From an uncultured archaeon (GTDB lineage: Archaea; Asgardarchaeota; Thorarchaeia; Thorarchaeales; Thorarchaeaceae), in NCBI GenBank assembly GCA_964648855.1, contig CAZYLT010000006.1:1-32000 (forward strand): 32,000 nucleotides of DNA. The letters are read 5' to 3'. Position numbers and translations under genes: made by a program. Shown here one piece after another: positions 17,739 to 22,580 of the stretch (its first letter is position 1; each line of letters starts with the position of its first letter). The notes beneath the pieces were generated by a model that was given only the letters and a program-made list of their open reading frames with translations, searched no databases and was not told the DNA's origin.

Positions 17739-18302
17739 ATGTCAATAAAAGCAGCTTACGAGCAACGTATCGAGATACCAGATGACTGTGATGTCACTGT
17801 TGAAGACAAGAAGGTAATCGTCACAGGTCCGTTGGGTACTCTTGAGCGTGAGTTTCCAGAACTCATCGCAGATTTTCAGATTAATGGTAATGAATTAGTT
17901 GCCTATACTCAAGTATCTAGAAAGAAAACACGGGCTTTAGTAGGTTCTATTGTAGCACATGTTAGAAACATGCTTACTGGTGTACAGCATGGATACGAAT
18001 ACACCCTGAAAGTTGTTTACAGCCATTTTCCACCAACCGTGAAGGATGGGGATGGATTTGTTGTGATATCCAATTTCCTTGGTGAACGCGGCGTACGCAA
18101 AGCCCGTAAGATAGGCGATGTAGACATCAAAATCTCAGAGGATGAGGTTGTAATCAGCGGCATAAGTATTGAGGATGTATCCCAGACAGCAGCCAATATT
18201 CAGAATTCTACGAGAATACGCAACAAGGATCGTCGTGTATTTCTTGATGGAATATATGTTTTGAAGAAGCGGAAAGGCACGGAAGTGAAGTCTGTAGTAT
18301 AG
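17739..18302 (+). CDS. rpl6: 50S ribosomal protein uL6
   Basis: YSHFP, NFLGE and DRRVFLDGIY. Confidence 0.97.
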   Translation: MSIKAAYEQRIEIPDDCDVTVEDKKVIVTGPLGTLEREFPELIADFQINGNELVAYTQVSRKKTRALVGSIVAHVRNMLTGVQHGYEYTLKVVYSHFPPTVKDGDGFVVISNFLGERGVRKARKIGDVDIKISEDEVVISGISIEDVSQTAANIQNSTRIRNKDRRVFLDGIYVLKKRKGTEVKSVV

Positions 18303-18314
18303 GAGGCAAGAAAG

Positions 18315-19649
18315 ATGACAAAGAAGCCAAAGTTAACTGACATTCCTGGAATCGGAGAAAAGATGGAAGAGAGTCTCCGAAATGCGGGAATAAAGACAGT
18401 CTTGAGTCTCTCAAAAGCAGATGCTGAGAAACTGGCTGAGAAAGTAGATGGATTGGGGATTTCCAGTGCCGAGGATTTCATAAGTGAGGCGAAAAAGCTA
18501 GCTCCTATAAAAGAGCCAAGCACACAAAAGAAACTAGGGCTTGAAGACATCACTGGTGTTGGGCCTAAGACTCAGGAGGCTCTTAGAGCAGCAGGATATA
18601 AGACGGTAGAAAAGATCGCGATAGCCGATCCTGCAGAGATTGCAGAACAAGTTGACGGCGTCGGTGATTCAACTGCAGACCAGATTGTGGAAGCAGCTTT
18701 TGAGCTTGTTCCTGACGAAATTAAGAAGAAACGCAAACCAAGACTGAGTGACATCACTGGTGTTGGGCCAAAGACGCAAGAAGCACTGAAAGTAGCCGGA
18801 TATAAGACGGTGGAAAAGATAGCAACAGCTGAACCGGCCGATATTGCAGAAAAGGCGGATGGTATTGGGGATACAACTGCGGACCAGATTGTGGAAGCAG
18901 CTTTTGAGCTTGTTCCTGACGAAATTAAGAAGAAACGCAAACCAAGACTGAGTGACATCACTGGTGTTGGGCCAAAGACGCAAGAAGCTCTCATATCAGC
19001 TGGATACAAGACAGTATCAATGATAGCAAATGCTGATCCAGCAGATATCTCAGAAAAGGTTGAAGGCATCGGTGATGCAAGTGCAGACAACATAGTTGAA
19101 GTAGCACAGTCATTGATTCCCACTAAGCCCAAAAAGAAGCGAAAGAAGAAGGAAGCTAAGAAGAAAGAGAAGGAACCTGAATTTGAATTTACAGGTGGCA
19201 AGGCAAGACGCGATCAAAGACTACTGAGAATTGCCGCCAGAAAGAAGAAACGCAAACCGAAGTTCCGACACGAACAGGCCCACCGTTGGACACGAGTCAG
19301 TGACAGTTGGCGGAAAGTTCGTGGCATTGACAGCGCGACACGGGAGAAGAAGAAGGGCAGACCCGCCATGGTATCTGCAGGGTATAGAACTCCAAAGGAG
19401 ATTCGTGGTCTGCATCCATCGGGATATGAAGAAGTTCTAGTCCATCGTCCCGCTGACTTGGAGGGATTGGATCCCGAAGTTCAAGCTATAAGAATTGGCG
19501 GAACAGTAGGGATGAAAAAACGACAAGATATTCTAGATAAGGCCGATACAATGTTTCTCAGGGTCCTAAACCCAGGAGTGCCTGAGGAGATTATGGAAGA
19601 GGACTTGTTCGAAGAACTTGAGGGCCTTGAAGACATGGAGGTTGAGTAG
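18315..19649 (+). CDS. rpl32e: 50S ribosomal protein eL32 fused to four N-terminal (HhH)2 repeats
   Basis: C-term KPKFRHEQ..WRKVRGIDS..GYRTP..RGLHPSGY..RVLNP; N-term 4x L.DI.G(I/V)G.K..E.L..AG.KT.....A....AE...G.G...A.. Confidence 0.95.
   Translation: MTKKPKLTDIPGIGEKMEESLRNAGIKTVLSLSKADAEKLAEKVDGLGISSAEDFISEAKKLAPIKEPSTQKKLGLEDITGVGPKTQEALRAAGYKTVEKIAIADPAEIAEQVDGVGDSTADQIVEAAFELVPDEIKKKRKPRLSDITGVGPKTQEALKVAGYKTVEKIATAEPADIAEKADGIGDTTADQIVEAAFELVPDEIKKKRKPRLSDITGVGPKTQEALISAGYKTVSMIANADPADISEKVEGIGDASADNIVEVAQSLIPTKPKKKRKKKEAKKKEKEPEFEFTGGKARRDQRLLRIAARKKKRKPKFRHEQAHRWTRVSDSWRKVRGIDSATREKKKGRPAMVSAGYRTPKEIRGLHPSGYEEVLVHRPADLEGLDPEVQAIRIGGTVGMKKRQDILDKADTMFLRVLNPGVPEEIMEEDLFEELEGLEDMEVE
18678..18988 (+). 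repeat. Exact 107-nt direct repeat (18678-18784 and 18882-18988), period 204 nt
   Basis: gaccagattgtgg...aagacgcaagaagc occurs twice, identical by manual comparison. Confidence 0.9.
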
Positions 19650-19651
19650 AT

Positions 19652-20104
19652 ATGAAACTCACTTCACAGAAACGACTTGCAGCAGAAGTCATGAAGGTTG
19701 GAATGTCTAGGGTCTGGATTGACCCAGATTTCCAAGACGAAGTATCGTTGGCAATAACGAAGGATGATATTCGTCGCTTGATTGATGAACGAATCATACA
19801 GAAGAAGCAAAAGAAGGGCGTTAGCAGAGGACGGGCGCGTCATAACTTACAACAGAAGAGAAAAGGACAGCGCAGAGGGCCTGGTAGGAAGAAGGGGAAG
19901 ACAACCTCAAAGCTTTCCAAAAAGGACCGTTGGATTCGCAAAGTTCGACCGATGCGACGCGAACTCAAGCGATTGAGGGATGAAGGTAAAATCTCGAAGG
20001 GCGTCTACCGGGAATTATATCTCAAAGCAAAAGGTAATGCATTCCGCAATACTGCCCACCTACGAACATACATATCTGAACACAATTTGGGAGATGTTAA
20101 GTGA
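19652..20104 (+). CDS. rpl19e: 50S ribosomal protein eL19
   Basis: QKRLAA, RVWIDP, GVSRGR and YLKAKGNAF. Confidence 0.97.
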   Translation: MKLTSQKRLAAEVMKVGMSRVWIDPDFQDEVSLAITKDDIRRLIDERIIQKKQKKGVSRGRARHNLQQKRKGQRRGPGRKKGKTTSKLSKKDRWIRKVRPMRRELKRLRDEGKISKGVYRELYLKAKGNAFRNTAHLRTYISEHNLGDVK

Positions 20105-20862
20105 TGGCACAAGGGTCAACATACCGAGTCAAATTTAGAAGACGAAGAGAAGGTAAGACCAACTACTATCGTCGTCGCCGAATGTTGAAGTCTAAGCTAC
20201 CTAGGTTAGTGGTGCGGAAGACAAACACGAAAATTATAGCACAGGTTATGACCGCGAAGGTAATTGGTGATATCACCGAGGCATCAGCTATCTCCCCTGA
20301 ATTGGAGAAATATGGCTGGGAAGCTGGCAAACACAATCTACCTGCGGCATATCTAACTGGACTGCTTGTAGGGCTTCGTGCAAAGAGTCGCGGAATCGAG
20401 AAAGTTATCCTCGATATTGGCCTGAATACGCCTGTGAATGGCTCCAGAGTCTATGCTGCACTCAACGGGGCACTTAATGCTGGATTGGATATTCCACATG
20501 GTGCCGAAGTATTGCCAGACGAGGATCGACTCAAGGGCAAACATATTGTGGAAAGCTTCAAGCATTTCGACTCAGAGGATAACGAGGGAAACATGTTTGC
20601 TGAGATAGGTGCTAAGAAGCGAACTATTACGAGTATTCCCAAGACCTTTGAAGAAGTAAAACAAGCTCTTCTTGATATTCCGAAGTCGGAATTGAAGAAG
20701 CGGAAGAAGAGCAAGAAACCCAAGAAGAAGCCCAAAAAAGAGAAAGATAAGAAAAAGAAGAAGCCCGAAGAACGACCTCCACGAGCGAAGCCAACGAAAC
20801 CTAAACCGAAGCGATTGACTTCCCGCGGTAAGGGCAAAAAGGGAAAGAAAGGAAAGAGATAG
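20101..20862 (+). CDS. rpl18: 50S ribosomal protein uL18 with Lys/Pro-rich C-terminal tail (likely start 20104)
   Basis: RRRREGKTNY, RLVVRKTN and NLPAAYLTGLL. Confidence 0.96.
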   Translation: MMAQGSTYRVKFRRRREGKTNYYRRRRMLKSKLPRLVVRKTNTKIIAQVMTAKVIGDITEASAISPELEKYGWEAGKHNLPAAYLTGLLVGLRAKSRGIEKVILDIGLNTPVNGSRVYAALNGALNAGLDIPHGAEVLPDEDRLKGKHIVESFKHFDSEDNEGNMFAEIGAKKRTITSIPKTFEEVKQALLDIPKSELKKRKKSKKPKKKPKKEKDKKKKKPEERPPRAKPTKPKPKRLTSRGKGKKGKKGKR

Positions 20863-22025: not shown

Positions 22026-22580
22026 GTGATTGTAATGTCATGGGACGAAGATCCATTTGATGACGATGAAGAGAGAAGAAAGGCATTTCGACGTTGGTTC
22101 GGCGAGTTTCTACCTGAATCGATGTTCAAAGAGCTAGAAGAAATGATGGATCATATGATGAAGCAATTCGGAAATGGGTCTTTCATCGACCCACGAAAGA
22201 TGGAGGAGTTCATGAATAATCCTCGTGGGACAAATCCGTTTGTCTTTGGCTTCTCTATGCAAATGAGTCCTGATGGTAAGCCAGTCATTAGACGATTTGG
22301 AAACACTTCCGTGGGCGAAGGCCCTATTATGGGTCCGACCCTGGAACCGCTTGTTGACATCCTGGAAGAGGATGGCGAAATCATTGTAGTAGCTGAATTG
22401 CCTGGCGTAGATAAGGATGATATCAAAGTCAGAATAAAGGGTCAACAGCTCACTATTGAAGTTACAGACCCCAATAAACCATATCACAAGGAATTGGAAT
22501 TACCTTCCAGAGTGGAAAAGGACGAAGCGACATCATCAATCCGCAATGGAGTACTTGAAGTTAGACTGAAGAAGAAGTAG
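22026..22580 (+). CDS. hsp20: Archaeal small heat-shock protein Hsp20 (likely start 22035)
   Basis: PFVFGFSM..SPDGKPVIRRFGN, EPLVD, VVAELPGVDK and NGVLEV. Confidence 0.93.
   Translation: MIVMSWDEDPFDDDEERRKAFRRWFGEFLPESMFKELEEMMDHMMKQFGNGSFIDPRKMEEFMNNPRGTNPFVFGFSMQMSPDGKPVIRRFGNTSVGEGPIMGPTLEPLVDILEEDGEIIVVAELPGVDKDDIKVRIKGQQLTIEVTDPNKPYHKELELPSRVEKDEATSSIRNGVLEVRLKKK

Follow-up and report, generated by a model that had tools for sequence, protein, structure and literature searches.

The ribosomal protein eL32 of an uncultured archaeon of the family Thorarchaeaceae (Asgardarchaeota) carries an N-terminal arm of four tandem helix-hairpin-helix (HhH) units. Its gene lies in the 32,000-nucleotide (nt) stretch of DNA that was analyzed here (the window; positions 1 to 32,000 of contig CAZYLT010000006.1, NCBI GenBank assembly GCA_964648855.1), where an open reading frame (ORF) of 444 amino acids (aa; 18315..19649, + strand) encodes a protein with four (HhH)2 units and a Lys-rich linker in front of the eL32 core and with an acidic tail behind it. 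Taken together, the evidence makes it very probable that this is the sole functional eL32 of the genome, encoded in the ribosomal protein operon, with four (HhH)2 units of which units 2 to 4 stem from an old insertion, with a stable unit number and with gene conversion at the unit junctions. Few known proteins are as conserved as those of the ribosome. In this genome one of the core proteins of the large subunit has tripled in length through the acquisition of a module of four domains whose usual place is on enzymes of DNA recombination and on topoisomerases.

Architecture of the four-unit eL32

An original prediction, made from the nucleotide sequence without database searches, had described the gene product as a 444-aa eL32 with four RadA-N-like HhH units joined by basic linkers, and profile searches bore this out. 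Pfam HHH_5 (PF14520) matched the protein in four stretches (169.7 bits, cut-off 27), followed by Ribosomal_L32e (PF01655) at aa 314-419 (122.5 bits, cut-off 25). The eL32 core (aa 300-425; 19212..19589, +) was also recognized by the NCBIfam L32e model NF006332 (152.6 bits, cut-off 120), and its fold matched chains of archaeal ribosomes at 40-54% identity in Foldseek searches. With the whole protein as query only eL32 chains were returned, and the chains of Pyrobaculum, Pyrococcus, Thermococcus, Methanosarcina and Haloarcula were matched with probability 1.00 and target TM-scores of 0.56-0.67. A query with the eL32 core had a single match in the whole metagenome-assembled genome (MAG; 3.1 Mb, 94.6% complete), which makes the gene the sole eL32 gene found there. 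It is flanked by uL6 and eL19 and thus stands in the canonical archaeal order uL6 - eL32 - eL19 - uL18. By direct reading of the sequence, a Shine-Dalgarno-like GGAGG (18302..18306, +), which overlaps the stop codon of uL6, lies 8 nt 5' of the ATG at 18315. This supports translation from the first ATG and therefore a product that includes the HhH array.

Unit boundaries were set with a custom unit hidden Markov model (HMM). Unit 1 (aa 4-63; 18324..18503, +) forms the tip of the arm and has a net charge of about -1 to -2. The following units are acidic, with a net charge of -7 in the 60-aa HMM envelope and -8 in the 57-aa core of unit 2 (aa 73-132; 18531..18710, +) and of -4 to -6 in both unit 3 (aa 141-200; 18735..18914, +) and unit 4 (aa 209-268; 18939..19118, +), and the isoelectric point of the array is 5.2. 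Between unit 4 and the core lies the Lys-rich linker (aa 269-299; 19119..19211, +), which has a net charge of +10 and is predicted to be disordered. Every unit contains two GhG hairpins, G-[IV]-G and then G-[LVI]-G, the glycines of which are invariant in the alignments A1 and A2, so that all eight hairpins of the array are conserved.

In both sequence and fold, each unit is closest to the N-terminal (HhH)2 domain of RadA/Rad51. NCBIfam RadA models matched all four units, and a single unit was superimposed on yeast Rad51 (3lda) with Z 10.3 and a root mean square deviation (rmsd) of 1.6 Å over 64 residues, and on RadA (1xu4) with an rmsd of 0.8 Å over 55 residues at 36% identity. Unlike in RadA/Rad51, the units of the window are arranged in tandem on a ribosomal protein and come without a recombinase core. 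AlphaFold2 predicted all four units as confident five-helix domains with a predicted local distance difference test (pLDDT) score above 90; the mean pLDDT was 81 for the whole protein and 86.5 for the array folded alone. Low confidence was obtained for the linker between units 1 and 2 (aa 66-70) and for a hinge at aa 273-296 (pLDDT <50), and linkers 2 and 3 were predicted confidently with a short helix in each. The architecture is therefore that of four RadA/Rad51-N-like (HhH)2 units with basic linkers between them, fused to eL32.

A single HhH extension of eL32 is known from haloarchaea, as the original prediction had stated (NCBIfam NF009401/PRK12766; PDB 1JJ2 chain X and 1S72 chain Y), and in these proteins an N-terminal (HhH)2 domain is likewise followed by a charged linker and the eL32 core. 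L32e of Haloarcula marismortui (240-241 aa) aligns to unit 4 and the core of the window protein (aa 208-424). The haloarchaeal protein belongs to another archaeal lineage, has one unit where the window has four, and has no gene-conversion tract. With NF009401, a model of 238 positions for HhH-bearing L32e, the window protein reached 230.8 bits and thus stayed below the cut-off of 239; the match covered aa 208-424, leaving the three further units outside. In the crystal structures of the Haloarcula ribosome 142-144 of the 240-241 residues of L32e are modelled, with the HhH domain among the unmodelled part, which suggests that the HhH domain of this known one-unit form is mobile on the ribosome and fits a domain that is not docked to it. 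The window protein is an extreme variant of this known HhH-extended eL32. Full-text searches of the literature library used found no paper on an HhH-bearing eL32 outside haloarchaea, and no description of an HhH domain on Asgard eL32 or of its function.

Distribution and history of the array

The eL32 loci of 86 species of the same GTDB family were collected, and units were counted by HMM on six-frame translations, which was possible for 79 loci. The number of units ranged from 0 to 4. A single unit was found in 56 loci from most genera, and two units in nine loci (genera g6, g9, g12 and g15, and single species in g2 and g5). Three units were present in one locus of g12 (G012). The two loci with four units belong only to g1, the genus of the window. 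The remaining 11 loci had no unit; they come from g4, g10, g13 and g14, apart from one in g5 that is cut off at the contig end. In sixteen other sampled Asgard genomes no HhH adjoining eL32 was found with the query used, and when 1.84 billion representative proteins were searched exhaustively with phmmer, no other eL32 with four units was returned. The four-unit array is thus as unusual as had been predicted, and it is the longest HhH arm found on any eL32. The next-largest arm belongs to a very acidic, halophile-like protein of 418 aa (P0130), which has three HhH units with acidic linkers between them. A further long eL32 of 423 aa (P0230) is rich in Lys and Glu at its N-terminus and is extended at its C-terminus by ~185 aa, the sequence of which, read by eye, resembles DJ-1/PfpI.

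The eL32 proteins without HhH units carry other extensions at the same position. Those of L056, L058, L071, L073, L080 and L081 (g4, g10, g13 and g14) have histone-H1-like N-terminal tails of 100-200 aa that are rich in Lys, Thr, Ala, Pro and Glu, and the tail of L058 (G004) contains about seven tandem copies of the 19-aa motif KKTTTRKKAEPKEEKPKAA. At one position of one protein, a single Asgard family therefore offers everything from 0 to 4 HhH units or a Lys-rich tail, which makes it a natural series on "tentacles" of the ribosome surface and is of relevance for the origin of eukaryote-style ribosomal protein extensions in the archaeal relatives of eukaryotes.

In a tree of the units, unit 1 of the window genus grouped with the single units of genera g8, g5 and g7 (Shimodaira-Hasegawa-like approximate likelihood ratio test support 95), and units 2, 3 and 4 formed one clade of three orthologue triplets. 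By its place in this tree, the tip unit is the counterpart of the single unit borne by most members of the family. Other genera appear to have duplicated their units separately, with apparently independent duplications in at least five genera across the family, although this tree pattern can be mimicked by concerted evolution. As judged from these counts and groupings, the number of units changed repeatedly across the family, although it stayed at four in the sampled lineages of the window genus.

Within this genus two further assemblies with the gene were available. NCBI GCA_004524445.1 (GTDB species G001) encodes an eL32 of 449 aa, and a JGI contig (3300034406, Ga0374084_160608; locus L002) contains the third copy; both have four units collinear with those of the window. 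The window gene is ~85% identical to both at the nucleotide level, with dS values of ~0.6-0.9. Between the orthologues dN/dS was 0.05-0.08 for unit 2, 0.02-0.08 for unit 3 and 0.06-0.15 for unit 4, and it ranged from 0.02 to 0.17 across all units compared with 0.01 for the eL32 core. Each unit is thus under purifying selection, which indicates that the HhH arm is translated and functional.

Units 2 to 4 form a tandem array with a period of 204 nt (Tandem Repeats Finder and a repeat search), in which units 2 and 3 are 82% and units 3 and 4 are 73% identical at the nucleotide level. Unit 1 shares ~26% nucleotide identity with the others in ungapped register, and its homology to them is clear at the protein level. 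The exact 107-nt repeat at 204-nt spacing that had been noticed originally was recovered at 18678..18784 (+; copy A, unit 2-3 junction) and 18882..18988 (+; copy B, unit 3-4 junction). At a background identity of ~75% between units an exact run of this length has a chance of ~4e-14. The repeat is shorter than a whole unit: in the product of copy A, the basic linker PDEIKKKRKPR has the last half-helix of unit 2 on one side and the first hairpin of unit 3 on the other. Two minus-strand ORFs that overlap the gene (18572-19201 and 18669-18983) were rejected as shadows of the repeat without any sign of being genes.

The three assemblies allowed junctions and unit middles to be compared. The middles are 71-75% identical within the window gene, and across the genus orthologous middles are 75-86% identical compared with 68-82% for paralogous ones. 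The junction tract behaves in the opposite way, with 96-100% identity within each genome (97-100% in L001 and L002) and 81-92% between genomes, and 18 of its 23 variable columns are concerted, i.e. both copies agree in every genome while the genomes differ. A tract that is alike within genomes and different between them points to gene conversion. From these alignments we conclude that the junctions evolve in concert by gene conversion on an array that is older than the split of the three sampled lineages, and that units 2 to 4 were inserted by tandem duplication before this split, with the copy number remaining at four since. Restricted to the junctions as it is, this conversion represents a clean, small case of concerted evolution within an essential gene.

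The original prediction had left the choice between recent duplication and gene conversion, and had described the array as still expanding. Gene conversion was supported by the concerted columns, while a recent duplication was not, given three diverged assemblies with four units each. An array that is expanding now, with the 107-nt identity as the trace of a fresh duplication, would account for the exact repeat and would agree with the 0 to 4 units and the apparently independent duplications in the family. Nevertheless, we consider it very improbable, since each of the three lineages, diverged by the dS values given above, has four units, no more and no fewer, in collinear order and with orthologous middles, the identity is limited to the junctions, and the copies of the tract change together within a genome while the genomes differ from one another. 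An assembly artefact had been named as a possible refutation; in this case a short-read assembler would have mis-joined the repeat or mis-counted its copies. An exact repeat of 107 nt around 97 unique bases does form a de Bruijn loop in which a second pass through unit 3 can be collapsed, and one nucleotide is missing from unit 3 of the JGI contig. However, the four-unit layout recurs in three independent assemblies from different samples, and lineage-specific substitutions are found all along it. Two of the three retain an open reading frame, and L002 is the less ambiguous as an assembly because its two tracts differ from each other. An artefact is hence very unlikely, and the least probable of the explanations considered here. 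The deletion splits the otherwise conserved eL32 of L002 (3426-4759) into overlapping ORFs of 211 and 252 aa and is the sole frame break in 8.7 kb of operon; it may be a real change or a local consensus error. The idea that L002 is an error-prone long-read assembly was rejected, as 14 of 14 neighbouring genes were intact as single high-scoring segment pairs. Its short gene calls reflect choices of start codon.

HhH modules in the genome and possible functions of the arm

A genome-wide census of the module, in which all ORFs were scanned by HMM, identified eL32 (four units), eS25, eL13, Rpo6, Top6A (four units), two RadA paralogues, two HEAT-repeat proteins and one protein of 538 aa as carriers. 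The 290-aa frame of eS25 (G000:C5:40931-41800, +; L084:432-1301) has a Pro/Glu/Lys-rich linker and one C-terminal HHH_5 (Pfam Ribosomal_S25 and HHH_5), and the 172-aa frame of eL13 (G000:C12:74987-75502, -; L089) likewise ends in one HHH_5 (Pfam Ribosomal_L13e and HHH_5). With eL13 in addition to eL32 and eS25, three ribosomal proteins of the genome bear the module. Rpo6/RpoK (225 aa; G000:C3:21289-21963, -; L085:790-1464) has an N-terminal HHH_5; a structured N-terminal fragment of thorarchaeal Rpo6 was noted in a 2026 paper that cites the HhH-fold paper (PMC13257274). The Spo11-like Top6A (G000:C5:165446-167782, +; L083:1447-3783), with the Top6B gene directly upstream, consists of a Lys-rich N-terminus, four HHH_5 domains with charges of +5, -3, +5 and +2, and TP6A_N and Toprim domains. 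The arm of eL32 is part of a wider and apparently undescribed HhH habit of Asgard ribosomal proteins, and the modules on eS25, eL13 and Rpo6 make a link of the ribosome to DNA or to the polymerase testable.

For the arm itself, we propose that the protein is held in the large subunit by its eL32 core and that the array would project from the surface as an arm of ~270 residues on the disordered Lys-rich hinge of ~30 residues. Its eight GhG hairpins and basic linkers would contact the backbone of duplex nucleic acid weakly and irrespective of sequence, and with more units the arm would gain in reach and avidity. The candidates for its target are DNA close to a transcribing polymerase, structured mRNA and rRNA. 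A mobile arm of this kind is a tentative proposal, with chances a little short of even, and the explanation as a whole, structural facts and mechanism combined, we regard as standing at even chances.

Binding of duplex nucleic acid by the array is plausible. In the same genome the HhH module is found on Top6A (four units), RadA and Rpo6, all of which work on DNA. Like the window eL32, Methanopyrus Topo V and the organism's own Top6A have several (HhH)2 domains in a row with short basic linkers. These arrays are, however, parts of DNA topoisomerases, and most of the units of Top6A are basic, in contrast to the acidic units 2-4 of eL32. Topo V-DNA complexes headed the Foldseek matches of the whole array, but the fold match was weak (best rows 8df7_A with an E-value of 1.6e-3 and 2csb_A with 0.33, both with low TM-scores). 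The Lys-rich tails of the HhH-less relatives, which stand at the same position, suggest that a basic, polyanion-seeking extension is the common theme.

Several points weigh against the proposed nucleic-acid contacts and in part weaken the original prediction of an arm that tethers ribosomes to DNA, RNA polymerase or rRNA expansion segments. Units 2-4 have net charges of -4 to -8, whereas the HhH of single-unit eL32 proteins averages +2.9, which argues against strong electrostatic binding of nucleic acid by the added units. In fold, the units are just as similar to the AR1 and AR2 domains of NusA, which bind proteins and not nucleic acid. Concerning rRNA as a target, Thorarchaeota were described to be without supersized rRNA expansion segments, with an expansion segment ES39 of 50-60 nt (PMC7594248), and no 23S rRNA was found when the MAG of the window was searched with the archaeal large-subunit rRNA model RF02540.

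The acidic charge and the NusA-like fold also bear on an arm that docks a protein. In this case the acidic units 2-4 would recruit a partner to the 50S subunit as NusA AR1/AR2 bind the C-terminal domain (CTD) of the RNA polymerase alpha subunit, and RNA polymerase, with its own HhH on Rpo6, or another HhH-bearing protein would be candidate partners; eS25 and eL13 of the genome also carry the module. AR1/AR2 resemble units 2-4 in their acidic charge and in their tandem arrangement as (HhH)2 domains, and NusA, which bears them, is a factor of gene expression. A unit matched AR2 with alpha-CTD (2jzb, Z 9.3), AR1 (1u9l, Z 8.2) and, with probability 1.00, the NusA of a complex that couples transcription to translation (8y5l), although Z values of this size are commonplace among small helical domains. 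NusA is, however, bacterial, its partners are alpha-CTD and lambda N, and no sequence relationship of AR1/AR2 to the eL32 units was detectable here; the nearest relatives in sequence and fold are the RadA/Rad51 domains, and one basic unit or a plain Lys-rich tail suffices in most relatives. We therefore consider protein docking unlikely, yet worth keeping in view. Somewhat less likely is that the added units bind no ligand and act as a structured spacer or escort that replaces part of a floppy Lys-rich linker, either setting the reach of the ancestral tip unit or neutralizing and solubilizing the very basic linker and core before assembly. This would agree with the position of the added units between the core and unit 1, which is orthologous to the single unit of other genera, with the alternation of acidic units and basic linkers, and with the linkers of ~60-110 aa or plain tails that relatives have in place of added units. 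The confident short helices in linkers 2 and 3, the converted junctions, also suggest a semi-rigid rod. Eight conserved GhG hairpins and the low dN/dS of the units are, on the other hand, tighter than a mere spacer predicts, and the mobile arm with weak nucleic-acid contacts remains the reading that we prefer. It is improbable that the modules on eL32, eS25, eL13 and Rpo6 form one system in which translating ribosomes and polymerase are held on the same DNA or in which the modules bind each other. If true, such a system would amount to an Asgard-specific, protein-built physical coupling of transcription and translation with the eL32 arm as its longest tether.

Acidic tail and neighbouring genes

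Downstream of the core, the protein ends in the acidic tail IMEEDLFEELEGLEDMEVE (19590..19646, +; net charge -10), which is kept across the family. In alignment A1 its residues E428 and F432 are invariant and E429, L431 and L435 nearly so. As a side observation, this tail, EEDLFEELEGLEDMEVE (19590-19646), is reminiscent of the acidic, hydrophobic tails of stalk proteins. In the ribosome of yeast, eL32 is a domain-II protein (PMC12825303).

The genes around eL32 were named from the Pfam-annotated collinear locus L001 and by tblastn of the window ORFs. In the collinear loci the order is of the spc type: uS17, uL14, uL24, eS4, uL5, uS14, uS8, uL6, eL32, eL19, uL18, uS5, uL30, Hsp20 and uL15. The uL18 gene (20101-20862, +; 253 aa) encodes a Lys/Pro-rich C-terminal tail of ~55 aa, KKRKKSKKPKKKPKKEKDKKKKKPEE...GKGKKGKKGKR, and thus a further basic extension on a ribosomal protein of the same operon. 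Between uL30 and uL15 lies a gene for an Hsp20/CS-domain protein (22026-22580, +), the position of which is kept in the related loci L001 and L002.

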